64,000 bases of DNA from a virus (lineage: Duplodnaviria; Caudoviricetes), in the IMG/VR virus record IMGVR_UViG_3300020036_009452, positions 25,428-89,427 of that record. One strand, written 5' to 3'. The notes under the pieces were generated by a model. The model searched no databases, was not told the origin of the DNA, and was given only the letters and a program-made list of their open reading frames with translations. Positions within the stretch are counted from its first letter, which is position 1. Every line of letters starts with the position of its first letter. Made by a program: the position numbers and the translations under genes. Positions 5,390 to 63,738 of this stretch are shown here, in pieces.

Positions 5390-6430
5390 ATGGAAAACGA
5401 GATGCCGGATCCTATAGAGCAATACTACAGCTCGCGAAGAATTTCAAACAGCCTGCTAAAAAGCATACAAAATCCAAGAGCAGCAAAGCTTAGGCGAGAT
5501 TTCCCTGAATTATATGAGAAGAATTCAACATCTTTAAAAATAGGCTCAGCAGTTGACTGTTTACTAACTGACCCAAAAGCCTGGATTAAAAAATTTAGAG
5601 TCTTAACGGTAAATAAACCTTACGGCTTCATGGGAAGTTTTGTTGAAGGATTACCAAAAGGTATTACGAAAGAAAGCCCAAGTGAGGATTTTGAAGGGGC
5701 CTATTGGCTCTCAGGATATAAGATGTCACTGGATTGGGTTGTGAATCGTTTTTGAAATACTCCAGATGCAGTTGAGTACTATTACAGCCAGCAAGATCTT
5801 CATGGGATAACTGTTCTCTCTAGAGATGAATATGAGTCCGTATTGAAAGCAGTTGAGCTTATTAACATTTCCCCATTTACAAAACCATACTTCACTTGTG
5901 AGCATAGCTTTGAAGAGTTGATGCACCAAGTTCCTATTTACTTTGAACTAGAGGGGCAGGAATTCAAGGCGCTTCTCGATGGGATTCGTATAAATCATAA
6001 AGACGAAACTATTGAGCCATTTGATTTAAAAACTATAGGCAAGTCAGTATTCGACTTTCCACAAAGTTATGTGGACTACGGGTACTACACACAGGCTGCC
6101 TTGTATGATTATGCAATTAGGACACCAAACAGTCCTGTGTTCGCATACATAGACCAGGGGTACAGGGTTAAAGACTTCACTTTTATAGTAGTTGAAACCA
6201 AGACCTCATCTACAAATCCGGCAATAATCTACACCACTACCCAGAAAGAGCGTAATTGCGGGTTTGAGGGAGGTGTAGTTAATAATAAATACTACAAGGG
6301 CATTTATCAGCTCCTTGATGATTACTTGTGGCACGAGTCCACAGACCAATGAACCTATCCCAAAGAAGTCTTTCAAAATTTAGGTAAAATTACATTGGAC
6401 GTTTTTAAATACAATGAAACACACAATTAG
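5390..6430 (+). CDS. PD-(D/E)xK exonuclease (DUF3799/RecE-like), 346 aa, two in-frame TGA (5753, 6350)
   Basis: ISNSLLK, GSAVDCLLT, FKALLDGI..FDLKT, YYTQAALY, FIVVE, LWH..DQ[TGA]TYPKE. Joins track ORFs 5390..5755 and 5843..6352 and ends at TAG 6428. Confidence 0.75.
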
Positions 6431-6965
6431 CGCATTATTTCTCTCCCCGCTCCTTGAACTAAAGAAGGAAGCGCCGCTAAATATATACGATCCGGCCTAC
6501 TATTTAGACACTTATTCGGGGGACGTACACAGGGAGGAATACCGCAACTGAACAGCAGGAGATTTCGTTCTTCTGGAATATAACAGTAATCTGCCAGAGA
6601 GCTTGATTGAATACTTTCAAAAGCGCTCGACTTTTGTAGAGATGTACGACCCGCAGAAGGGGAAACGTATCTTTGTATTCAGACTACCGCAGGAGGTTAA
6701 AAAGTCTTACACTGCCAAAGTTTTGGCGGGCAAGTACTCAGAAGCAGACAGACAGGTCGTGGACAAGTATTTTCCAAACGATCCTAGCCACCCACTTTAT
6801 GGAAACCGGTTGGTGTTCGATAAGGGTGAACAATGGCGAAACTATTGGGACGCGCGAGGCGTCGTAATACCGGAAAACGCAGAGGTCTATTCAAAGCCAC
6901 AGGCAAAAAATGAACAGTATGGATATGTTAAACCAAATTCAGGGGACGATGGCGAACTTGCTTAA
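6414..6965 (+). CDS. Hypothetical protein (183 aa), one in-frame TGA (6549)
   Basis: ATG 6414 overlaps the exonuclease end and runs through YRN[TGA]TAG(D) into track ORF 6603..6965. Confidence 0.65.
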
Positions 6966-7380
6966 CGCTGGAGTTGAAAAGTTAAAGTTCTTAAATCGAA
7001 TACTGGATCCTGAGCGCATTGCGCAAATTAGCCAAACCCACACTCGAAGGGAAGAGGCTTTGCTAGCCTTAGGTTTAGAGGAAAAAGACCTCATAGTTAT
7101 TGAGGAAGAAAAAGCGGGGAAACGCGAATTTATTCGCCGGGCAATTGCTCGTTCTAACCCCTCATTCGGAAGATTCCTAACCGAGGCTTATGTACATTAC
7201 GAGACAACAAAAAACCCAAAAGCGCAATCGCGCATTAGCAAGGTTGACAGCCTTGAAAAGCTACAACAAGAATTGAACACATGAAATCCCGAAACGTTAA
7301 AAGCGGAGGACCTATTGTCCGCCTGTGTTCAACTCTACTTGCTGCATCGGAAACTGCCCAAAACTAAGCCAGAACCTTAA
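6910..7380 (+). CDS. Hypothetical helical protein; ends at TGA 7282 or, if read through, at TAA 7378
   Basis: Track ORF 6910..7284 plus a protein-like continuation WNPETLKAEDLLSACVQLYLLHRKLPKTKPEP. Confidence 0.5.
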
Positions 7381-7468
7381 GACCTCATTAGTCTCATGCC
7401 ACCTCTGGATTTAGAATGTAAAAAGAAGTCAACGTACTTTGGCAGTTAGAAAGCGCTACAAAAAGAAA

Positions 7469-7505
7469 GCCCCCTTCCTGGATCGCTCCGGGTTGGGGGT
7501 TTTTT
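7469..7505 (+). terminator. Intrinsic terminator closing the replication block (possibly bidirectional)
   Basis: GCCCCC-tt-CCTGGA-tcgc-TCCGGG-tt-GGGGGT with an A-tract upstream and a T-tract downstream. Confidence 0.75.
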
Positions 7506-7544
7506 ATTTTAAATTTTACCTGTTCACCATAAATTTACACACAC

Positions 7545-8516
7545 ATGAATCTTTTTAAAGCTTTCCTATTACTCCTTGCAGGATTCTTCACAGTCGTCAC
7601 GTTTCAACGATGCGCCACTGATCCACAACTCTCTGGCCCAGCTGCCTACCTCCCATACTTGGGGCTTTTGGCAATCCTGGGAGTGGTTGTTTACTTCCGA
7701 AAGCGTTTGGCAAGGTGGTTAAAAGCCACACCAATCCTATTAGTGCTGTTCACGACCAGCTGTGACTTTGTAGCTTCCGACAAGATCGGGGTTTGGGTTA
7801 AGAACTATGGAAAGACAGTCGATGATTACCAGCTAATACTGGGGAAATTCCCTGTTGACTGGTCTTACTCGACTTGGACCCTTGAATACCCCGGTACTAA
7901 CTTTCCAGTCCAAATTGACCCGATACAAATGTACTGTAAGGATGGGGTTGGCGTGTTTGTCGACCCAAGCGTTCTTTGCGCTCTTATCAAGAGTGACGAG
8001 GCGTGCCGAAAGTACGCCTCTCAATTTACTGCTTATCGCGATGGTCCCGCATTTCAAGAAGCGATTGCGCAGACAATCTTCAAAGAGACCATTGCGGCCT
8101 GCCGCCAAGTTGTGCAAAACACAGTGTCTGATTCATTATTGGGAAACCGAGGAAGATACTACACAATGATGGAGGTTGACTTAGGGCAGAAATTAGTTTC
8201 GGTCTATGGCGTATGGTTGAAGCAATTTTCTGTGGAAATCAGTGTCGACCCAACTCTGCAGCAGGCTATCAATGGGAGATTGAATGAACAAGAGAAGACG
8301 AAAAAGACCCTAGCCTCGGTTGAAAACGAAAAGGCGGAGATTAAGTTGATGGAACTGAGAAAAGTGAAAATTGATCTTGAAAGTCAAGCCTATTCACCAC
8401 AATTCCTGCGGAAGTTGGAACTTGACTATTCGTACAATGCCTGGATGGCTCTTGCCAACTCACCCAACAAGGTCTTTGTGGGCGGCACCCCAACGAAATT
8501 TCTAATTAATCCTTAG
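7545..8516 (+). CDS. SPFH/Band-7 (prohibitin-like) membrane protein with a lipobox-like signal
   Basis: N-terminal hydrophobic segments, LLVLFTTSC, IGVWVKNYG, CKDGVGVFVDPSV, and C-terminal coiled coil LQQAINGRLNEQEK..KAEI..KVFV. Confidence 0.8.
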   Translation: MNLFKAFLLLLAGFFTVVTFQRCATDPQLSGPAAYLPYLGLLAILGVVVYFRKRLARWLKATPILLVLFTTSCDFVASDKIGVWVKNYGKTVDDYQLILGKFPVDWSYSTWTLEYPGTNFPVQIDPIQMYCKDGVGVFVDPSVLCALIKSDEACRKYASQFTAYRDGPAFQEAIAQTIFKETIAACRQVVQNTVSDSLLGNRGRYYTMMEVDLGQKLVSVYGVWLKQFSVEISVDPTLQQAINGRLNEQEKTKKTLASVENEKAEIKLMELRKVKIDLESQAYSPQFLRKLELDYSYNAWMALANSPNKVFVGGTPTKFLINP

Positions 8517-8539
8517 TCAATCATCTGTTAGCAGGTAAA

Positions 8540-8571
8540 TCGGTGGCTCTAGTAAAGTCTGGGGCCACCGA
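8540..8571 (+). terminator. Intergenic RNA hairpin (terminator or processing site)
   Basis: TCGGTGGCTCTAG-taaagt-CTGGGGCCACCGA: 13-bp stem with 2 G.U pairs and a weak T-tract. Confidence 0.6.
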
Positions 8572-8583
8572 ACATTTTAATTT

Positions 8584-8889
8584 ATGGAAAACTCATCTAC
8601 AATTTTAAACTGGAACATAGCTGCCCCTGCTAAGTCAGTAAGTGAGCAGCTACAAAAACAAGTAGACTACGCTAAAGGCCTTTTCATGGCCTGGAGAAAA
8701 CGTAACCCAGAAGCGTCAAACATTTTGGTTTTCAAACATGTTCTACAAGGATACCTCGTTCGAGTCCTTCTTAGTGAAGGGCAGTTTGAGGTGGCCTTTG
8801 ACAGGTTGGATGCCTTTTGGGAAGAATACACCATGGATTACATCTCGATTTGGGAAAAAGAATATCAATCTAAGCATGAACTTATTTAG
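8584..8889 (+). CDS. Hypothetical protein (101 aa)
   Basis: ATG after an AT-rich leader; ends TAG; 4 Trp, all TGG. Confidence 0.6.
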   Translation: MENSSTILNWNIAAPAKSVSEQLQKQVDYAKGLFMAWRKRNPEASNILVFKHVLQGYLVRVLLSEGQFEVAFDRLDAFWEEYTMDYISIWEKEYQSKHELI

Positions 8890-9271
8890 AGATCTATTGA
8901 CAAATTTACGTTTGGGGAAGAAAAAGGATTACCCCAAATACACAGCGCACTTTTTGAAACACTTGAATCATTCAATGACTGAACTTGTACTCCGTGAAGA
9001 AGCTTTTCTCTTACATCAAATCCTGTGTAATGAAAAAGTGCTGTTGGAAATCCAGCACATCTCGCGGCGTGTTTCAGTTGTCACAATCGAAAAATATGAA
9101 GAGTCGACTGATTTACTTCGTAATATTCAATCTAGCAATCTTAGGGGGGATGTTTTACATGCTCTACGGGGGGATGAATCCCTCGATCTACTTCATACTG
9201 GTACTCATACTCATTGTGGAATTCTATTTCATGAAAGAGTTGCGATACTTTATCCGGTATGGACGATTTAG
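8876..9271 (+). CDS. Hypothetical protein (131 aa)
   Basis: ATG 8876 overlaps the previous gene's end; part of track ORF 8738..9271. Confidence 0.45.
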   Translation: MNLFRDLLTNLRLGKKKDYPKYTAHFLKHLNHSMTELVLREEAFLLHQILCNEKVLLEIQHISRRVSVVTIEKYEESTDLLRNIQSSNLRGDVLHALRGDESLDLLHTGTHTHCGILFHERVAILYPVWTI

Positions 9272-9287
9272 CCCCCCTAAGATTTGA
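9096..9287 (+). CDS. Small two-TM membrane protein (63 aa), ending in TGA
   Basis: MKSRLIYFVIFNLAILGGMFYMLYGG..SIYFILVLILIVEFYFMKELRYF; TGA 9285 sits 11 nt before a terminator. Confidence 0.55.
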   Translation: MKSRLIYFVIFNLAILGGMFYMLYGGMNPSIYFILVLILIVEFYFMKELRYFIRYGRFSPPKI

Positions 9288-9298
9288 AGTGTGATAGG

Positions 9299-9337
9299 CT
9301 CCCTCGCTGCAAAAGTGCGGTGGGGGAGATTTTTATT
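9299..9337 (+). terminator. Intrinsic terminator
   Basis: CTCCCTCGCTGCA-aaag-TGCGGTGGGGGAG: 13-bp stem with G.U pairs, followed by ATTTTTATTT. Confidence 0.7.
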
Positions 9338-9355
9338 TCATCTAAAACTCAAACA

Positions 9356-10297
9356 ATGAAAAAAGTTGTCGATTTACCACCTAATTTTCTAACATCCGCC
9401 CCCGGAACTTCTATTATAGAGGGAATCCTGGAAGAGCAAATTCAAGAAGAGCCAGTTGAAGAGAAGGAATCCGAAGTGATTGAGGCGGCCGGCCGAGTCG
9501 AAGTGCGTTATCAAGTGGAGTATATTAGTTTAGACCCCACAGTAGCGCCCCCGCAAACTAAATACGGCAAGGAAGCTTTCGACGCAGCAGGTACATTTAA
9601 TGAACTTCCAGAAACTTACAAAGCTACAGATGAAAATGGAGCTAAGTGGTTCATAAAGAAGATTACACCCCGCTCACACACTGAGACTTTTGGCGATACG
9701 GATTTAGTAATCCATACAATCCGTATTGAGCTCGTGCCAGTGGAACCTTCAAAGCGCCCTGCTGATATAGATGCCAATTCATACAATGTCTATTTTTTCA
9801 AGGTGCTCCCCACTGACCACCCGGCGCAACGCAACGAACTACCCGATTTATACGGCAAAGCAGCTTATGATGAGTGGGCTGCAGACATCAGTGCCGGCAA
9901 GGCTGTCGGGTCCAGAATTGTTGACAGTATGGGGGTTGTTTGGGTAGTAATGCGGGCTGTGATTCGCCGAGAGGTAGGGCCTTATGAGAAGCGTATCGAT
10001 GTGGATTTGTTCCCTTTTGTCCCCGGTTTGGATGAACCCACCCAACATATAGACACCGAAGGACCAGCTGAGGAAATTGATGTGCGCGCCCATGCCCAAG
10101 CATTATTTTGCAGGGCGATGCTGGAAGCAAAGATTGAAGGGGGCCTGAAAAGGGCAATCTGGACCTTATTTGTCGATTCCTTCACACCTGAACAACTTGT
10201 GACAGCGCGCAAAGAAATTCTCACCGCTATTCAAACCGAAGAAGCGGACTTGCATAGCCGGAAAAGTAAACTCCTAAACTTAGAATTTCCAAGATGA
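9356..10297 (+). CDS. Hypothetical protein (313 aa) with two copies of an unknown domain; ends in TGA
   Basis: ATG 9356 lies downstream of the terminator. Its TGA overlaps the next ATG as ATGA (10294-10297). Confidence 0.65.
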   Translation: MKKVVDLPPNFLTSAPGTSIIEGILEEQIQEEPVEEKESEVIEAAGRVEVRYQVEYISLDPTVAPPQTKYGKEAFDAAGTFNELPETYKATDENGAKWFIKKITPRSHTETFGDTDLVIHTIRIELVPVEPSKRPADIDANSYNVYFFKVLPTDHPAQRNELPDLYGKAAYDEWAADISAGKAVGSRIVDSMGVVWVVMRAVIRREVGPYEKRIDVDLFPFVPGLDEPTQHIDTEGPAEEIDVRAHAQALFCRAMLEAKIEGGLKRAIWTLFVDSFTPEQLVTARKEILTAIQTEEADLHSRKSKLLNLEFPR

Positions 10298-10800
10298 ACC
10301 CATACGAATTTGCTTTCTTTTGCCTACACGCCTTCGCGGCTAATCCCAGACAGGGAATCAATGACCCCGGCTGGATTGATACTCTCTGGGCATTTACCTT
10401 CATTGGGGCACACTACGAATTGATTGCAGTACTTTGGCGGCTTGCCTGGCGACGCTCAAAGCGTAAGAAGACATCTCCAACGGTACTTCCTGAACCCGAC
10501 GAACCGTCCGAACCCGATGAGCGGGAAATTGTACACAAGGTTCGCCTTATCTACCGGTACCCACCAGACAAAGCCCCAAAACATTCAGTCTGGCTTGCTG
10601 AATACTGCGATAGGGACAGCTTTATAAAATTTAAAGCCGACGAACGTTTACGAGATAATATCTTTAGTTTCCGGGGAATCAACTGGTACATTGGGAGTAG
10701 TTACGAAAGTGGCTGCAAAGGCCCTGGTGGAAAGACCCGTTTACTAGTTGTAATGATGATTCCAATGCCCGATCAAGTTCATCTTTTAAATACTCTGTAA
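10294..10800 (+). CDS. Hypothetical membrane-anchored protein (168 aa)
   Basis: Hydrophobic N-terminus, basic RRSKRKK, PEPDEP linker; TAATG coupling to the next gene. Confidence 0.6.
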   Translation: MNPYEFAFFCLHAFAANPRQGINDPGWIDTLWAFTFIGAHYELIAVLWRLAWRRSKRKKTSPTVLPEPDEPSEPDEREIVHKVRLIYRYPPDKAPKHSVWLAEYCDRDSFIKFKADERLRDNIFSFRGINWYIGSSYESGCKGPGGKTRLLVVMMIPMPDQVHLLNTL

Positions 10801-11351
10801 TGCTTCAACAACAAATATTGGATTACGTTCGCACCCGTCCATGGGCTCCTGCACTCTGTATCGCACTCTGTTTGCTGCTAACCTCTATGGCTCTGGTTGT
10901 TGGTGTTGAACATGGTAAACAACTAGCCAATGCCAAGTTGGAATTAGAGCCATTGCCGGACAGCATCCCTGCCAAATGGAATCGCCTTTACATTTTAAAG
11001 GACACCACAAGAGAAGAGCCCATTTACATAGGGATCATGGACATGAATAAAGACCGTGATTATCAGCCTATCTTTGATGCGCTTAAAGCTCAACCTAACT
11101 GTAAGCTGGATTGGCTTGAGCGAAACACTGCCGATGAAATGTACGTTCAATACCTGCGGGCGCACGCTGGTTACTTCGACATGCGTTGGGAAACCGTATT
11201 TTGCGTAGATCCTGTAACAAAAGACACCTTTGGTCTTAGTTTGGATTGGTCAGAACATGTGCAGCACCAAAGCAATCAGGGCGATTTAGAGGCCTTCAAC
11301 AGGCTTCTTGATGTTATGGAAATGTTGAACTACAAAACGGTTGACCATTAA
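10800..11351 (+). CDS. Hypothetical membrane-anchored protein (183 aa)
   Basis: TM segment WAPALCIALCLLLTSMALVVGV; ends TAA before the convergent terminator. Confidence 0.6.
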   Translation: MLQQQILDYVRTRPWAPALCIALCLLLTSMALVVGVEHGKQLANAKLELEPLPDSIPAKWNRLYILKDTTREEPIYIGIMDMNKDRDYQPIFDALKAQPNCKLDWLERNTADEMYVQYLRAHAGYFDMRWETVFCVDPVTKDTFGLSLDWSEHVQHQSNQGDLEAFNRLLDVMEMLNYKTVDH

Positions 11352-11378: not shown

Positions 11379-11409
11379 GCCCCTCCTCACCGTCATGGTG
11401 GGAAGGGGC
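11379..11409. terminator. Bidirectional terminator between the converging arms
   Basis: GCCCCTCCTCACCG-tca-TGGTGGGAAGGGGC: about 13 bp with one mismatch, in the 74-nt gap between convergent genes. Confidence 0.7.
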
Positions 11410-11425
11410 CTAAATTTTTCTGCGA

Positions 11426-19410: not shown

Positions 19411-22400
19411 TTTATTTGAATTAATCCACTAGCAGCTAGCCGTTGATAAAAGTTTAGATTTTCTGGAGTTAAAAGCGTTGCTAACTCGGCTTCAACGTCA
19501 GATTTTACACGTAGTATATCGTCAAAAGAAATAGGTGTGAGAAGGTCAGCTCTGTTCTTGCGCTCTAATAGGTTAGATGCAAAGTTATGAACTATATCGT
19601 TTTTAGCAACTACTTCTGTTATAGTCGTTAGTTTCCTTAGCGTATCATTCATAGCTGACAATTGTTTATTCAATAAACTACGTTCAGCATAAGAGGCTTC
19701 TGGAATCTGGGACGAGACCGTGGCAATCTGCTGAGTTAACAACACAATATGCTGGGTTAAATAATCTCGTAACTTACTTCCATTCACCAGCACTGGTTCA
19801 CCATTGCTATAACCGTAAACATCTCCTGGGTTCACAACAAGAGCATCGTCTTGTTTATGTGCCGGATTGATTTCCTTCAACATAGGATTTAAATCCAAAG
19901 TTTGTGGATCTCTGTTTGTTTCTTTACGTATTACAAATAAAGAGTCAAGATCATAGTCAGAACCATGATAGTAAACTATCAATGATGGAGCTATTATAAC
20001 ATTACCCGCAGCTCCTTCTGGTGAAGGATAGAAGCCTACAACTTTCATTGGTAGGAGTGAGTGATAGTTTGTAGTTGGAATACGGAACCCAACTAATCCT
20101 TTTGAGATGCCCACCTTATCACCAACAGTCATGTAGTCTTTGTATTCTTCGGGTAGTAAAACTTCGCAGTAACCTTCTTCGTCTCTCCATTTTAAGTTCC
20201 TAAATTCGGTTGTCCCATCAGGATTTGTAACTTCTTGTTTTCCTAGGTCAGCTTGTAAAACTAACTTGGAACCTTTGAATCTAAATCCTGTAGTAGCCGA
20301 AGTTATCATCGAGCTTAAACTAGAAACAACACGATCAGCTATCAGAGGTAGATTAAATGAAACTCTGTCTTGCCCATTACGAGCTTTGAGTAGTTCATAA
20401 ACATCTCGACCTCCTGGTAAGCCCTCCAAGTTGTCTTGGAGTTTATTTCTAATCATAGTCTCAGAGTTCTGCGTAAGTCCACCCTTTGGAGTCAACCGCA
20501 TATCCCTAGCTACCTGCCTAACACCATTGTCTATAATTAACGCACTAGCTTGGTGTAGATCAAATATCTCATTACTGTTTTGTCCATTTGTATTTTGCAT
20601 GGCTGTACCTTGCGATGGATTACTCACAGATGTTTCAATATCACTAGCCGGGTTTAATTGGAAGCGGAGATTGTTATTGTTTATGCTTACAAGAGCCGCA
20701 TCCGATATAGTAGTGGTATCAATTTCACCCGACTCCAAAAGCTTAGCGGCTTTAGAAGGCCCACCTATTTTCACGCCAGAAGCAAATACCATTTGATCGG
20801 CTTTTGCGTCCCGCATGGCTTGTCTATAAGAAGCAAGGTGAGGAAATTTCTCTACTAGTTCGTCTGTTAGAACCTTCACTGAATACTTTAGGGCTCTAGG
20901 AACTCCATTTTCTATGGAGTAATAAACTGGCTTTAACACTACGTCGGTTAACGAGTCAACACCGTAGGCTGCGGCAAGTCTTTCGTAGAACTCTGGTAGC
21001 ATATAACCTTCGGCATCTGAGGCATCATAGGAAGCATCAATAGATGCAGCAATGGCGTCCTCTAGATCATCAGGTATAATTCTTTGTAAATCATCCACAA
21101 CCAGCACATTAGATTCACCTGGTATTCCATGGGTAGGATCTACGAGTACTGTATCCCCAGTAGCTGTTGCTATTTGGATACGTTTGGTTTGATCCTCTTT
21201 GCTTTTGTAGAAAGTTTCATCCCCGTAAACTATTTGAGACAAAGAATACTGATTGATTATGAAGTTGTAATAGAAGCTTTTTAGAACCCCTTCTATAATT
21301 TCATTACGCTGTGTGTGGTAAGCACCAATTTGATCTACCGTCATGTTCTTTGACCAAACAGGGAAAGCTCTTAAGCCCAGAACCCTAGCCGTTTTAGCTA
21401 AGCTATTGTCTGGAATTTTAACTCGTGCTTTTCTTTCTGCTGAGCTTAGAAAGGCTGGTAACAGTTCTTGAACCTTAGTTTGGACATGTTCTTGAATCAT
21501 CTTTAGTGCCGCAGCTTCCGTTAAGCTATCCACTGAACCTTCTAAACCAGGGAAGCGCCATTGTTTATGATTCTTAGCGTAAGTTGGATTGTCATCAACT
21601 AACTTAGGATCAGGACGATTCTTCTGGGCCCTTATAATGTTCTTTAAAGCGGCAGTAACTTGTTCTCCTTTTAATAGATCAACTTCTACATTAGTAATAG
21701 TAGTCCTATTAGACGGGATGGGAAGAGACTGATAGTACTTAGAACGGCTAACTGCAAGTCTTGAGATAAAATTACCAACAATATGTCGTTTTCTAAAGTC
21801 AGTTAGATTTTCTTTTCTAAGGTACTTAGCAAAGCGTTCGTTGCCTTTTTGCTTCCAAGAATCATGGTCATTAAAGGAATGGATTTTATTACCACCTTTG
21901 AAGAATATGTTATCCTGTAGGAATGGATCTTTAGTAGTAAGCTTGTCATTAGCTACTGAGAAAGAACTAAACTTCTTAAAGGGTTTACGTACAAGTGCAT
22001 TTACCATTGCCCCAAGCAGGTCTGTCTGATAAGAAGCGTCTATCCAACCGAAAGCTTTCTTGCCGTCTCCTCGTGTATAGGAGTGTGTATCTCCTAATGT
22101 ATAGTGAGAGTTTATCAGTTCTGTAAGATCATCTACAAAGCTTCCTTCATCAGCTAGGAGCGCTTCTCCACCTTTACTCAAATTGTATTCTTCTAAGGTC
22201 TGGTATTCTCCCTGATCGGATGCAAAAGTCATTTGTAGTTTTGGTAGTACCAGAGTTAGACGTTCGTAAGCTCTCTCAATACTAAGCGGAGAAGCATCAG
22301 TAATACGTTTCTTTAATCCGATGATCTTTAGGAATTCAACAAGTACAGCCCTTTGTTTTTCAATGGTATCTGCTTTTGTAGCATATAGATCATTTAAGAA

Positions 22401-36337: not shown

Positions 36338-39300
36338 TATCTATTTCTGTTTTGTATTTGGGTACCTACGAGATCTAATTTTATATTGTAATCTTCGCTA
36401 GGAAAATAAAAGAGTCTAACACCTAGATAATAATCTTTTAGGCGAGCACTTTCATAGAAAGGTTTATCGGGATTGATATTTGAATTATTTACAGTCTTGT
36501 CTATATAACTATAGGGCACACTGGCTTTTGATTCTCAAGATGAATCCCATATTGGTGCATTAGGACTAATTGATAAATCTCTTAGATTATTAATCCGCCA
36601 CTGTTTATCAGTTTTTCTGACTAGGGATAAAGTATTAGTTATATCCGTAGCAAAGTCTTCAACTCGTACTAGGGGTAGTTCCCCAGAAATCTGGTTGCTA
36701 TTATAGAACGTAGCCGCTGTGTAAGTGCTGTTCACTTGAGCGATCTCTTTTGTAGTAGCATCAAGAGCTGTTGCAAAAGCTGAATAACCTATCCCAGTGG
36801 TAGTCTTAATTTCCTTTGGGTTCTGAGAAGCAATAAAGTCTACTATATGGGGAAACTTTACTCCGTAATAAGTTTGGAAATTTGAGTTTCCATGCTTATA
36901 GATTTCAGAGTATCCGTTTTGGCTAAAGAGATTATTTGAATTAGCAAATAGAAAAGAAGGCAAGTAAGAGTGGTATGAGATCCAGTTCTGAGTTAGAAAA
37001 GAATATGACATAGTAAAAGACTTATTCTCAAAGAATGTTACGTTGTCAAAGTCTATACTTTGGACTGCTCCTGTTGGGGGATTGTAATAAAATGAGTGCC
37101 CGTTAAAGAACACTTTATCAGGAGTAACATAATAGAGAGGTTGGTCTGTTTCAGTTGGATTGTACACGAACTTTGTTTCCCACTGGGGTAACAACTTAAA
37201 GTCTCTCTTGTGAACTATAAGACGTTTAAATCTAGGATCATAGCTTGCTTTGTACCCAACACCTATTGGTGAAGTGTGCGAGATGTATGGAAACTTGTAA
37301 TTCGTTAATCGCTCATACTGAGCTAGAAAGGATAATTCTCCGTTCTCTTGCCAGAAGTTACGTGTTCCTTTTAGGGATAAATCATTTAGTTCTCCTCCTA
37401 ATAAGAAAGGATGCCCCGCGAATGAGTCTACATAGAAAGTACCGTACTCTGTCGATAAGCGTGATGTGAAGTGTGGCTGACCAGCAAAAGCTAGTTGAGT
37501 ATTCTTTAACTCTATAGGTGGCACGCTAAAGATAGCACCAGTTCCTAAATACACATTTGCTAAGTCAGTCTGTAGCGTCTGTGTTTGGGTAGGAAGTAGG
37601 AAGATAGAACGAGTAGTAGTTACATACAGCTTATTGAAATTCATAAACATATCTGTAATTGGTCCTGATGTTCCTCCAATTGCATCTGTATAGTTGCTAG
37701 TTAGGATAATCCTATTGGCGTCCTCTAGAGTTTCATTGTTATCTGGTAGTGAGTGATAGACCGTGTGTGGCTTATCTTCATTACACATATTACAATAAGG
37801 ATACGCAAACTGTATTGGATAGTCATATGTAAGCCCGTCTAAGAAAGAAAAAGACTTATTGTATAAGTATCTCTCTGGATAGTATGCGAAAGCTTTGTCC
37901 CCACTTTTGTATTGCCGAATCTTCATGTACTTCCTAAGGTGCGTATGATTGTCCGCAAAAGTAGTTGGATTCATATGCTGGAAGTATAGAAACTCTCGAT
38001 TGGTCTTAGACCCGTGTCTAAAGTTATAATTCAATAACGTATCCTGAGTTGGGAAGGACAGGAAGTAACTATCATAATCCATAGTTATAGAGCCTGTGTC
38101 TCCAGCTTCGGGTACGCCTGTTTGACGATAGTTGAAGTCAACCATTGATAAGCGACTAACTGCAGTGTCCCCACCGTAAACAGTATATGTAGTACTAGGA
38201 CTTCCTTCCCTAGATAAGCAGTTGCCAAAGCGTTTAAACTTTATCTCATACAGATTGCTAAATGTGTCTAAGTACTGGTGGATCGCCCCGTAATACATCT
38301 TCCCGCGCCAAGCTCCTCCTGCAGTAGTAATGTCTGCTGACCCAGAGTTTAGTCTAATAATCTGATAGTTATTGTTTATACTGTTATTAGTAAACGTAGT
38401 ATTTGATAATGGCTCATAGACTTCTACACCATCCTGTGCGCCGGCGTAAGATTTCTGTAGGAACAGATCCGTGCGCATGGTGTGGATAAGATTATTTTGT
38501 GCTGGGAGATTATACCTAGAGAAGTACCGAAACTGTGTGGTAGCATCTAGCGTGCCTATCCAATCTTGTTCAGCATCAAACACATAAGACCCTGAGGTAA
38601 AGTTGTTAGTTATCGACGCATCAGAGTTCTCTTGATTTAAATCCCTATAGATCTTTTCAAACTTAACATAAGCACCTCTTGTAGTCTGCTCATTTAATAG
38701 TAGATCACTACTTATAAATGCATAGGCATTCTTGAGTATGCCTGAGTTAGGAGAGGGTGTTGGATTGTATGTTTGGGCAGATATTGTAGAAGGATCAATG
38801 GTGTGTGTATTACCCACAATTTCAAGAGGGATAAACACTCCCTTAGCTAAGATCTTACGTTCAAAGGACCTATCACCATAAACAAAGTAGTGCCCCACAA
38901 TATCCTGATCTGGTGGATATTCAACATTAGAGAAGCGGACGCCAGTTCTAAAATTATGTGCCGTAGCACCTGAGTCACGAATCTCGGCTCCTGGCATCCG
39001 GTGATGGCGAATCTTTGTTACACCTGGCACTATAAGATTACCGTGCCAGTCTCTACCCCAGTAACCATCAGTCAACGCTTCGCATGTAGGTATATCTGGG
39101 TATGTCTCGGAATCTGACTCATGGTATCCTGGAAGTCCTACAAGAGAGGTTCCATACTGAACAGCGGTAGAAATCTGCCCCCAACGCTTTGTGTAGGCAA
39201 TTCCGTCTCCATAAGAAGCAGTACCAGTATCCCAAGGATTGCCATCTGTAGCAACTCCTAAAGATCCTATATAAGGGTGATACCCATTAGCTGGAATGTC

Positions 39301-59935: not shown

Positions 59936-62141
59936 TAAATAATCTGTTATTATTTATTATGAGCCTATTGAGGTCCTTATCAAGTTGGGATATCTCAGCT
60001 TGATTATACAACTTTCGTTGCTCCATATTGGATAATTCTTCAAGACCTAGTATACAGCCAATCAAGGAAGATACTCGGTCGAAGTTTCCATCTAAGTTAT
60101 AAGCAATTAGTTCTTGGAGTAGTGCTGGGTCAGGTATAAGGTCCAAATTGCGTTTCCCATCTCCTCGATCTTCTAACAAGAAAGATCGAACATACTGTAG
60201 TGCTTCCCATTTTATCTTATCGTTTGATAGGGGGTAGCCATAGATAACCTGTGGGCCACTATCATAGGAAGCTTTTTTATTAAAAATAGTTACAGGTTGA
60301 CGAGCTAGGAGATCTAATCGACGAATCTTCTCAAAGTAATCCTTTACGTTGCCTACGTTATTCTCAAAATATATCTTTGCGTTACCATAAAACAAGGATA
60401 GTTTGTATAGTAATTCATTCACATGATTCTTTCCTAAATAGGGGCGACCAATATAGTTAGCCACTATTTCTGAATACCCAACAGATGAGGGATGTTTGTT
60501 TGTCTTTATAACGTATATGGATGCCAAGGAAGCCCCTGTTTGCCCGTCGTCTTTATAAGGGTCACAACCTATAATATAGGCCCCCTCGGGGATAACCTCC
60601 TGTATAACCTTTGGAAATTCATATATAACTACTGCCCCTTCTAATTCATCGCCTTCATATGGAAATCGATTTATGGCCTGGAGCTTTTCGCTGAGTTCAT
60701 AATTCACACCATTATATATTTTAGCAGATGGATCAAAGTAAAGTGTTACCTTCTTCTCCAAATAATCACTCATTTTGTGAGTTTGGATTTCGGATAATCT
60801 CCTACGAAGTTCCGCTGTGGGGAATATATTAGCTGTCTTGGTAAGAAACATCTCAGAAGGAACAATAGGTCGATACTGCATTTCCTTATTCAATGCTTCT
60901 GATCCGCCTGAGTCCCCTGCTTTTTTCTTTCTTACATTTAATAATGCCTGCTTTGCTGCCGCAGCATCAGTTACACCATCATCATCCTTATACTCGTTGA
61001 GTACTTCATAGGCGGGTAAGAAGTAACCTATATCACCCCTAAATTCCCATGTGTCTTCAAAGGGAAGAATACCATATTTATGCGGCTCATAAAACATCTC
61101 AGCAGCATCAAGGGTACCTTTTGACATGTCACCACCAGTACCCAGCATCATAAGCATGCCTGTTTTTACAAGACCATTACGAAGGTTATCCACTGTGTTA
61201 GTGTATACATCCTTTAAGCCCGCGAACATACCAACCTCTTCTAAAACTAAGAGGAGTGGACGTGTTCCTTGTGCAGCAAATGAGTTAGACGAGAAGGATT
61301 TATGCTTTATAGATGATTTAGAACCGGCTACGAGCCAAGCTCCATTTTCACGCCTTTTGTATTCAGCAATGATCTCCCTATTAACATCTCAAGAACCTCG
61401 ATACCGTTTTAAAAACGGAGAAGGATAAGTTCTATCATGGAGAGTTTGTTTACCTGGCAACCAGTCAAAAGCGTCTCGAACCTTCTTTAAAAGGTCAGCC
61501 GAACGGTCAGACTTCTCAGCACCAACCAATATCTCTGCTGGTTTAGGAAATTTTCTAGTAAACTCATTGTACACTGTAGATCCATCCATCAGGAAGTTAT
61601 GCGCTATAAGTCCTGAAACTGAATAGGATTTACCTGATTCACGAGAACCAAGTAGCATAAAGTTCTGTAGGGGGTTTTCAAACAGCGGGGCGCCTAGTGG
61701 GGCATCATATGTTTGAAAGAGCGCTTTTCTAGGGGAGATGTATTCCTTTCGCTGTCCTGTAATTGGAGATATTGTGTTTGGGTGTCAGCGCATTAATATA
61801 TCATCCGTAACATTTTCATCTAGGAGTACGTTATTGGATGAGTAATAATGGTCATCTTGGAAACCAGAAAAGCCCCTGGCTTCGGTGTAGTAGTTAAAAA
61901 ATTTATACTCTACATCACGTAACCAGGGGCGATCGAAGGTTTTCAGGGCTGAACCTCTTTTGTTTAATCGTATTGTATGGAAGTTTACATAATAGTAAAG
62001 GGCCGGTGGAATAAAAGTTCCACTAGCCCACATACCTTCTATACACCTACGGCGTTGTTCTCTCCAAAAAATTCTGTAATCCACCGAGAGAGGGTGGAAA
62101 TTTGGTATTTCTTTTACTATTACATCTGTAGCTTTAAGCAT
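59895..62141 (-). CDS. terL: Terminase large subunit, 748 aa, two in-frame TGA (61785, 61389)
   Basis: FWREQRRRCIEG; Walker A LGSRESGKSY; Walker B LVLEEVGMF; GTGGD; nuclease IGCDPY, ENN, NFDRVSS. Three track ORFs join in one frame through ILMR[TGA]HPN and YRGS[TGA]DVN. Confidence 0.9.
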
Positions 62142-63738
62142 AGTCCATTTGTGGCGGCGCGTAAGGCGGCGTTCTATCCACGTTTGTTAGGGATACCTCT
62201 GCAAGAATTAGCATATTAGCTGCGGATACAGCATTAGTAATAGCCTGTTCAACAACTAGAAGAGGGTCAATAATTCCTCGATCTCTTAAGTTATCGAATT
62301 CTTGTGTTTTGGCATTGAAACCAAAGTCGGGTTCGTCTTTTTCCAGAATCCTTTCGATAATAGCCTCGGCTGTTTTGCCTGAATTCTTTATAATCAAACG
62401 CAAAGGCTCAGTTAATCCATCTACAAAAGCATTTACTATTGGAGTTGGATCTTTCTTTGTGAGTTCTTGCGCGGCCCAAAGAAGTGCTAATCCCCCACCA
62501 ACTAAGTAACCTTTAGCTACTGCAGCAGAAGTGGCTCGAAGTGCGTCATCTACACGATCTTTTACCTCTTTTTGCTCTGTCTCAGTGGCAGCTCCAACAT
62601 TAATAGTTGCTACTTTTGCAGCTAGATCAGCTAGGCGTTTCTGATATTGAGATGTAAGATATGGATTATCTGGAACATTATTCAATTGCTCCTTTATAAG
62701 AGCAATACGTTCTTCTACACGTGCATTATCTTTCTTTGGTTCAACAAAAACTGTACGTTCTTTGGAAACAACAACCTTCTCTGCTGATCCAAGATAATGA
62801 GGACCAAAGTCAGTGTTTGCAGTATCATTAGACAGAATCTTACTAGAGGTAATCGCAGCCAAATCTTTAAGCAGTTCAGCGCGATTTTCTCCAAATGAAG
62901 GACCTTCAATAGCAGCTACACGTACGATTCCTTTTATCTTGTTCACAGCTAGTATCTGTAAGGCGTGGCCGTCAATAGAATCACATATTATAAGTACAGG
63001 GCGTTTAGATTCATGGGCAGCTTCTAGTACCGGAACTACATCTTCAAGGGTACGAAGCTTATTATCTGTAATGTAGATAAGTGGTTTTTCCAAAATAGCC
63101 TCACCTTTTGCTGCATCCGTAATGAAATACGGAGATGCGTAGCCTTTATTCACGGAAGCACCAGGAACTAGTTCAACCTCAGTCTTACCTGTTTTGGAAT
63201 CTCCTAAGGTAATCAAACCTTCTTTACCAACATACTCAAAAGCTGAGTGTATAAGGGCTCCAATAGTCTCATCATTATTAGCTGAGATAGTGGCAATCTT
63301 TAAAATATCCTCACTAGAAACAGGGCTGGCATTCTTTACTAAGTTCAAACGAACCTTATGGAGTAAATCTTCAAATGTCCTTTTGATCTCAATTGGTTGA
63401 AAGCCTAGCTTTATTAGTTTAAAAGCTTGTTTAACTAGCGCAGCAGCAATAACTGTAGATGTAGTGGTGCCATCGCCTGCTAAATTAGCTGTGCGATCAG
63501 CAGCCTGGCGAACAATTGTTACAGCTAAGTTCTCTGTAGGATCTTCTAGTGTAAGATGTTTTGCGACAGTAACACCATCTTTTGTGACTGTAGTTGCTCC
63601 ATATTGGGTTTCGATGATAACATTCTTACCCATTGGCCCTAGAGTGGACCCGACAACCTTGGCCATCTGTTCTACTCCGCTGAGTAACTTTTCTTGTGTG
63701 GCAACTTGTAAATCTATTTTTTTAGCTGGCATCAACAT
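62134..63738 (-). CDS. groEL: Phage-encoded GroEL-like chaperonin
   Basis: TLGPMGKNV, VTKDGVTVAK, AGDGTTT, VGAATETEQKEVKDRVDDALRAT, GGG, GIIDP. Lacks the GGM tail. Confidence 0.92.
   Translation of the reverse strand: MLMPAKKIDLQVATQEKLLSGVEQMAKVVGSTLGPMGKNVIIETQYGATTVTKDGVTVAKHLTLEDPTENLAVTIVRQAADRTANLAGDGTTTSTVIAAALVKQAFKLIKLGFQPIEIKRTFEDLLHKVRLNLVKNASPVSSEDILKIATISANNDETIGALIHSAFEYVGKEGLITLGDSKTGKTEVELVPGASVNKGYASPYFITDAAKGEAILEKPLIYITDNKLRTLEDVVPVLEAAHESKRPVLIICDSIDGHALQILAVNKIKGIVRVAAIEGPSFGENRAELLKDLAAITSSKILSNDTANTDFGPHYLGSAEKVVVSKERTVFVEPKKDNARVEERIALIKEQLNNVPDNPYLTSQYQKRLADLAAKVATINVGAATETEQKEVKDRVDDALRATSAAVAKGYLVGGGLALLWAAQELTKKDPTPIVNAFVDGLTEPLRLIIKNSGKTAEAIIERILEKDEPDFGFNAKTQEFDNLRDRGIIDPLLVVEQAITNAVSAANMLILAEVSLTNVDRTPPYAPPQMDYA

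Follow-up and report, generated by a model that had tools for sequence, protein, structure and literature searches.

The codon UGA has two meanings within one phage genome. The window, as we call the whole stretch of DNA analysed here, comprises 64,000 nucleotides (bases 25428-89427) of the 89,427-bp linear IMG/VR record IMGVR_UViG_3300020036_009452 (hereafter G000), which is about 89% complete. We found this genome to be a mosaic of codon use. TGA is a sense codon in the replication, cargo/tail-associated and terminase genes, and it is a stop, never a sense codon, in a 16-kb early block at the beginning of the record and in a 3.8-kb island of accessory genes at positions 7545-11351. Coordinates are window positions unless prefixed with the name of a genome or contig (G000, G00x or L0xx).

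The phage is crAss-like (Crassvirales). A profile search found the PF25725 crAss cargo domain, PHROG profiles of terminase, portal and major head protein were matched, and an identical capsid gene on another contig carries a PF23898 Crass_capsid match. Three minus-strand open reading frames (ORFs) of 4087, 1151 and 1509 aa are of the giant RNA-polymerase type. A fuller copy of the phage is present on a 102,154-bp contig, to which the L045 coordinates belong, and L005 is a 99.5% identical variant. For comparison we used three related near-complete genomes (G001-G003, portal 63-67% identical), of which G001 shares its lineage with G004, and the contigs L047-L050 (L047, L049 and L050 from other projects), which were located through a homologue search with a 131-aa ORF of the island. 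L047 is nearer to G000 than G001-G003 are (UDG 75% identical, C-terminus of the 1509-aa protein 80%). A metagenome scan yielded one further lineage, L056.

Sense and stop TGA codons along the genome

Greedy ORF coverage rose from 92.7% to 96.4% on changing to code 4. Single profile matches run across TGA codons: the phrog_6681 match of TerL spans two of them, and so does the AAA_24 match of an ATPase. Within real genes, almost every TGA of G000 has W or TGA opposite it in G001-G003 and L047, and when all aligned ORFs are pooled, TGAs stand opposite 53 W and 50 TGA. The facing residues are W/W/W in the 414-aa gene, W in all three relatives at residue 1342 of the 1407-aa gene, and W/W at residue 251 of TerL; L047 is recoded at the same sites as G000. 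From these alignments the inserted residue is taken to be Trp, and the shape of the tRNA candidate described below leaves alternatives such as Ser. The last recoded replication gene (6910-7380) lies only 163 nt upstream of the first gene of the island. Its TGA at 7282-7284 stands opposite W in L047 and opposite L in G001-G003, and homology continues past it to residue 147 of 156. The base that follows TGA did not separate the two uses among 30 sense TGAs and 10 stop candidates: it was G 13, A 13, T 2 and C 2 times after the former, and A 7, G 2 and T 1 times after the latter.

In the island the picture is reversed. The preliminary description, made from the letters of the window, had counted about 26 Trp codons there, all TGG, with no internal TGA. 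Our recount gave 26 TGG and 0 in-frame TGA (6+4+1+0+4+6+5 in gene order, from 7545-8516 to 10800-11351) versus 41 TGG and 26 TGA in the whole replication block just upstream (Fisher p = 5e-5). Sense TGA is also absent from the three giant genes (virion RNA polymerase) and from most virion genes, including the capsid gene. The island is set apart from these other TGA-free genes by the fact that TGA ends genes in it.

The two island genes that end in TGA had been described as the only such genes in the window, and this was borne out: the other TGAs of real genes align with Trp or TGA or are passed by homology, and the remaining TGA-ended ORFs with coding signal are sense TGAs or antisense noise. 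Outside the view of that description, at least 7 more TGA-ended genes lie in the 25 kb of genome before the window. Of the approximately 55 genes called under code 4 in the recoded and late blocks, not one has an end-marking TGA, and wherever an in-frame TGA could be matched to a relative it is sense.

The first 16.3 kb of the record has the same regime as the island, with 48 TGG, 0 internal TGA and 7 of 15 genes ended by TGA, several of them in ATGA overlaps. Orthologues confirm three of the early stops. The homologues of the genes at 6028-6801 and 7063-8265 of the record end at the same place in G001 and G003, the former with TGA, and an apparent 743-aa ORF (G000:C1:8262-10493) is two separately framed genes in both relatives. 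Early genes are 30-45% identical between lineages; at such divergence of orthologues, the standard-code regime must be old and maintained, not a recent arrival. The pair within G000:C1:8262-10493 lies in one frame, parted by a TGA at 9426-9428 and four codons, and read-through would fuse the two products; another adjacent pair is joined likewise in G002 (20206-22092). This case also led us to reject a good codon score on either side of a TGA as proof of read-through, since the ORF looked single in G000 and is two genes in the relatives.

The island and its slot in related phages

The features of the island are listed below. It is bounded and divided by four strong hairpins with T runs, the outer two of which separate it from the replication block on one side and from the convergent minus-strand arm on the other. 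The hairpin sequence GGGTTGGGGG and its T run at 7470..7512 are identical and in the same place in L047, and a similar element occurs in G003. The stem of the third hairpin (9299-9328) has 13 pairs and is followed by its T run; in L047 it is kept by paired changes (GCTGC/GCGGT to GTTAC/GTAAT). This third hairpin splits the island into a half shared with L047 and a lineage-specific half. The fourth is nearly identical in L047.

Table 1. Genes and hairpins of the island and its borders (window positions)
Feature	Position	Strand	Details
Last recoded replication gene, 156 aa	6910..7380	+	In-frame TGA 7282-7284 read as sense
Terminator-like hairpin + T run	7470..7512	+	-28.3 kcal/mol, z -4.7; separates replication block and island
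323-aa membrane protein or lipoprotein, probable SPFH/Band_7	7545..8516	+	6 TGG, 0 TGA; stop TAG
Strong hairpin between 323-aa and 101-aa genes	8540..8571	+	13 pairs, -24.4 kcal/mol, z -7.8
101-aa gene	8584..8889	+	4 TGG; stop TAG; 59% identical to L047 102-aa gene
131-aa ORF	8876..9271	+	First 76 residues = 77-aa family; stop TAG
63-aa protein, two hydrophobic segments (two-TM)	9096..9287	+	ATG 9096; stop TGA 9285-9287
Terminator-like hairpin + T run	9299..9338	+	-26.4 kcal/mol, z -5.3; 11 nt past TGA 9285-9287
313-aa ORFan	9356..10297	+	4 TGG; stop TGA 10295-10297, ATGA overlap with 168-aa gene
168-aa protein, hydrophobic N-terminus	10294..10800	+	6 TGG; stop TAA
183-aa protein, N-terminal hydrophobic segment	10800..11351	+	5 TGG; stop TAA; codon score +0.16
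Hairpin + T run, convergent junction with minus-strand 1509-aa gene	11379..11424	.	-22.2 kcal/mol, z -3.4

Both TGAs at 9285 and 10295 had been proposed to be true stops, and both proved to be so. The gene for the small protein with two hydrophobic (TM, transmembrane-type) segments was doubtful in the beginning: its codon score over the overlap was -0.16 versus +0.10 for the frame of the 131-aa ORF, its third-position GC content (GC3, 0.58) was atypical, the Joint Genome Institute (JGI) had called the 131-aa ORF instead, and it is missing from the protein collection. The possibility that it is an off-frame artefact is ruled out by its homologue in L049 and L050, a 63-aa two-TM ORF at the same position, which also overlaps the 77-aa gene and stops at TAA. 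BLASTP aligned residues 33-63 of the G000 protein with residues 33-63 of that in L049 (42% identity, pairwise E 1e-7), and the C-termini read ...RYGRFSPPKI in G000 and ...EFGRFNPPKL in L049/L050. Comparison of homologue C-termini thus gives the same end residue, with TAA instead of TGA. Since length and C-terminus agree and the relatives have TAA at that very codon, the two-TM gene is real and TGA 9285 is its stop. An initial BLASTP search against L047 failed because a 1-nt insertion (L047:8300) breaks the gene there; it is intact in the 99.3% identical L049 and L050, and the insertion is either a sequencing error or a natural frameshift.

For the 313-aa gene the evidence comes from the frame itself. 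Up to the TGA it scores +0.25-0.28 per codon; the codon score then turns to -0.12 and -0.09 in two segments of the 109 codons that read-through at 10295 would add; from approximately 10300 the frame of the next gene (10294-10800) becomes the best-scoring one. In L005 the substitutions 10578, 10605 and 10611 are synonymous in this 168-aa frame, and its patch of variants causes 5 residue changes in the read-through frame versus 2 in the 168-aa frame. Homologues of the 313-aa protein were found neither in the IMG/VR pattern scan nor in the five related records, there was no usable ESM Atlas match, and a protein search returned only the protein itself, present on 5 contigs from several samples. 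C-termini are not comparable in this case because no search gave a homologue. The 168- and 183-aa proteins are likewise ORFans, so that the second half of the island consists of ORFans only, unlike the first half shared with L047.

In the first half, the 323-aa protein is 64% identical to its L047 counterpart. It scores 21.5 bits against PF01145, below the cut-off of 23.6, and matches phrog_200 ('lipoprotein'); 10 of 10 of its homologues carry PF01145 in a precomputed table. The IMG/VR pattern scan with this protein found nothing. An unrelated phage found in the same JGI samples has a Band_7 gene (L052:8001-8966) whose protein is 39% identical to it; that phage uses the standard code, with 15 of 26 genes ended by TGA. 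The same phage also encodes, at L052:12029-12487, a 152-aa protein with an RF-1 domain (ArfB-like). The L047 homologue of the 101-aa gene, 102 aa long, ends in TGA (ATGA overlap) at a C-terminus homologous to the one that TAG ends in G000. This exchange, together with TAA for TGA in the two-TM gene, indicates that stops in the block interchange freely between TGA and TAA/TAG.

Residues 1-76 of the 131-aa ORF match P0003, a 77-aa protein, with 43% identity (E 1.6e-10 among 1.8 billion proteins). The gene of this family has its TAA at residue 77 in L047 and a TAA stop in L049 and L050. The G000 member has lost its own stop and continues for 55 further codons across the two-TM gene in another frame, which is a genuine overlapping extension or else a run-on that the phage tolerates.

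In every relative a slot corresponds to the island, reaching from the last replication gene to the 3' end of the convergent 1509-aa gene. It is the convergent junction of two gene arms, edged by conserved terminator hairpins. A survey of related genomes for the code of this block showed that the slot uses TGG only in five lineages, although its content differs. In L047 it holds an extra 105-aa gene, the Band_7 gene (64%), the 102-aa (59%), 77-aa (43%) and two-TM genes, the hairpin, and a 242-aa gene unrelated to those of G000, which ends in TGA; the count is 11:0 (TGG:TGA) versus 16:13 in the replication genes (p = 0.007). G001, G002 and G004 have a single 201-aa gene, G003 has four small genes, the first of which ends TGA-TAA, and L056 has four genes, two from families also found in L047 and G000. 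Summed over the five lineages, the slots contain 49 TGG and 0 TGA, and 5 of their 22 genes end in TGA (an earlier tally of 5/17 versus recoded/late genes gave p = 4e-4), while the flanking replication genes carry sense TGAs in every lineage. In G003, approximately 630 nt without a convincing ORF lie between the last replication gene and the slot hairpin (G003 36669-37297, L031:16669-17297); they could be a non-coding RNA or a regulatory region.

Candidate suppressor tRNA and ribosome rescue genes

A tRNA(UCA) was found neither in the window nor in the whole 89-kb record. In the approximately 10 kb beyond the record's end, however, the fuller copy has a tRNA-like gene at L045:6984-7080 with the loop CUUCAAA on a 5-bp anticodon stem, a long variable arm giving a tRNA-Sec-like shape, an odd T loop (UGCAAGU) and G73-CCA. 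In G002, ARAGORN found a 94-nt tRNA(tca), also with a long variable arm, at c[7643,7736]. The release-factor domain PF00472 had no match in G000-G003. Near the suppressor candidate lie both a gene for transfer-messenger RNA (tmRNA) at L045:6072-6333 (RF00023, 76 bits; 32-residue tag according to ARAGORN) and a second, short tmRNA-like piece at L045:8477-8583. UGA read-through and ribosome rescue may conceivably be linked. In addition, a tRNA of 53.6 bits with an abnormal anticodon loop, GAACCGT, that lacks U33, called 'Gly acc' by ARAGORN, is located at L001:1501-1577 (G000:C1:2433-2509), with a weak tRNA-like element (24.9 bits) just upstream (L001:1383-1450).

Readings of the dual code and comparison with known systems

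The preliminary description had proposed a dual, possibly timed meaning of UGA and a code-11 host. The duality stands, with TGA a stop in the block and a Trp-aligned TGA in the adjoining gene 6910-7380. The many functional TGA stops, the candidate phage tRNA(UCA) and the Bacteroidota hosts of crAss-like phages (PMC7886860) point to a standard-code host. It also seems fairly probable to us that translation of the slot genes, like that of the early block, takes place in the absence of UGA suppression. We favour this reading because of the parallel with the early block, the absence of sense TGA among the 49 Trp codons of the slot and the contrast in stop use. In this scheme, host RF2 would terminate early-block and slot genes at UGA, and in the recoded genes a phage suppressor tRNA(UCA) would have UGA decoded as Trp. 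The slot genes, mostly encoding small membrane proteins, would be made while suppression is absent or weak, and once suppression was on, their UGA stops would be read through.

Several observations weigh against translation in such an unsuppressed phase. Its timing component is purely inferred. The TGA-free RNA-polymerase and capsid genes show that absence of sense TGA alone is no mark of early genes. Moreover, since the G000/L047 split only approximately 4 of 27 shared Trp sites in the replication genes have changed state. At this turnover no more than about 1.5 new TGAs would be expected in the half of the island common to both phages, and zero alone is not compelling. An ORFan in the recoded block (G000:C1:23828-24241) apparently ends at a TGA in an ATGA context, after which the coding signal is lost in a 270-nt non-coding gap; this suggests that UGA stops are tolerable beside recoded genes. 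A promoter search of the island gave nothing: the sigma-70 scan stayed at shuffle level, and no 8-mer is common to at least 4 intergenic regions; in G003 the first slot gene begins 8 nt past the T run. Finally, the tRNA candidate in L045 reaches only 26.7 bits on RF01852 (tRNA-Sec), for which the Rfam cut-off is 47, and it is missed by ARAGORN.

The main rival is that the stops are a neutral legacy. The slot would gain and lose genes from a standard-code pool so fast that there is no time for TGA Trp codons to appear, the TGA stops would persist owing to incomplete suppression and a degree of harmless read-through, and no timing would be involved. We regard this as possible but rather unlikely. 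It agrees with a gene content that is different in each of the five lineages, with the ORFan status of the 313-, 168- and 183-aa genes, with the 39% identical Band_7 gene in the TGA-rich L052 phage (15/26 genes), with the possible TGA-ended ORFan inside the recoded block and with the low TGG/TGA turnover since the split of G000 and L047. However, the first half of the island (7545-9290) was resident before that split: at 43-64% identity to L047 it is about as diverged as core genes, which for this half speaks against the earlier suggestion that the block was recently acquired from a code-11 phage. Nor is there any compositional foreignness. Island GC is 0.38-0.47 versus 0.38-0.48 for the neighbouring replication genes, and codon scores are within the neighbours' range, so that foreign composition was rejected as a mark of the island. 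The early block, furthermore, keeps the TGA-stop, TGG-only regime in old conserved genes, for which recent arrival is no explanation, and TGA ends none of the approximately 55 recoded/late genes versus 5 of the 22 in the slot.

It is very improbable that TGA is a sense codon at 9285 and 10295 as well, with products extended by 34 and 109 residues and no standard-code island. Both frames are indeed open under code 4, but the two-TM homologue has TAA at exactly that codon and the extension of this protein would cross the conserved terminator hairpin, while the extension of the 313-aa protein has a negative codon score and lies wholly within the next gene, which carries synonymous variation. Still less credible is an artefact of chimeric assembly or miscalled genes. 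The data are metagenomic and the linear record is incomplete (about 89%); against this, 5 contigs of different samples, including one of 102 kb, carry the same block with its flanks, and a homologous block with the same flanking genes occurs in L047, L049 and L050.

A bolder version of the unsuppressed-phase reading, which we consider improbable, is that the code follows the expression slot and not the ancestry of genes. Any gene arriving between the two conserved terminators would be kept to the host's code, since it would be made in a suppressor-free state, either very early or in a non-lytic carrier, and their UGA stops would double as an off-switch. An active tRNA(UCA) would cause read-through, and ribosomes passing 9285 would enter the terminator and leave the mRNA at its 3' end. 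The products would be extended or passed to trans-translation, a pathway for which the phage has a tmRNA of its own. If this were true, the same codon would turn late genes on and early accessory genes off.

The timed dual meaning of a stop codon within one genome is a published model for recoded phages (10.1101/2021.08.26.457843; PMC7886860; 10.1101/2022.06.29.495998). Block-wise stop reassignment in crAss-like phages is described by Yutin et al. 2021 (PMC7886860) and by Ivanova et al. 2014 as cited there. The island is a clear new example of these mixed codes. As in the published block-wise cases, one part of the genome has TGA for Trp and the rest the standard code, the in-frame TGAs face TGA or TGG in relatives, and the suppressor tRNA(UCA) is hard to detect. 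Unlike the published cases with two regimes, G000 has at least 3 code regimes in more than 4 blocks, and, again unlike them, its replication genes are recoded and its RNA-polymerase and capsid genes are not. Pfennig et al. segmented such genomes into code blocks with Mgcod; in their results the code as a rule switches after a change of coding strand, and early blocks are mostly dual-coded (10.1101/2022.06.29.495998). In G000, by contrast, the switches from early to replication genes and from replication genes to the island are both on the + strand, and the standard-code blocks actively use TGA as a stop. The island is only 4% of the genome, below the block size that Mgcod retained.

In the model of Borges et al. 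standard-code genes are expressed first and recoded genes after the switch, and replication genes are variably recoded among clades (10.1101/2021.08.26.457843). The present reading is like it in assuming that host-code genes come first and that genes with in-frame stops need phage suppressor machinery. That model stresses recoded lysis and structural genes, with the reassigned stop depleted beforehand; in G000, on the contrary, TGA stops are frequent (7/15 early and 2/7 island genes) and no release-factor gene was found in G000-G003. The island also resembles phage morons, being composed of small fast-changing accessory genes, mostly for membrane proteins, between conserved modules and flanked by terminator hairpins. 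Morons have their own transcription signals, however, and the island showed no promoter; nor are crAss-like phages known to be lysogens.

Thus, UGA as Trp and UGA as a working stop are found in one phage and on one strand, with the code changing within 300 bases, and the accessory slot preserves this split in lineages with different genes. The published idea of a code switch during infection therefore has a compact natural test case in this genome. Annotation under a single code miscalls it either way: under code 11 the replication genes and the terminase are broken, and under code 4 early and slot genes are fused or extended. Just upstream of the terminase gene, the minus strand at 62134-63738 encodes a full-length GroEL-type chaperonin (phrog_5725, E 7e-132; Cpn60_TCP1).

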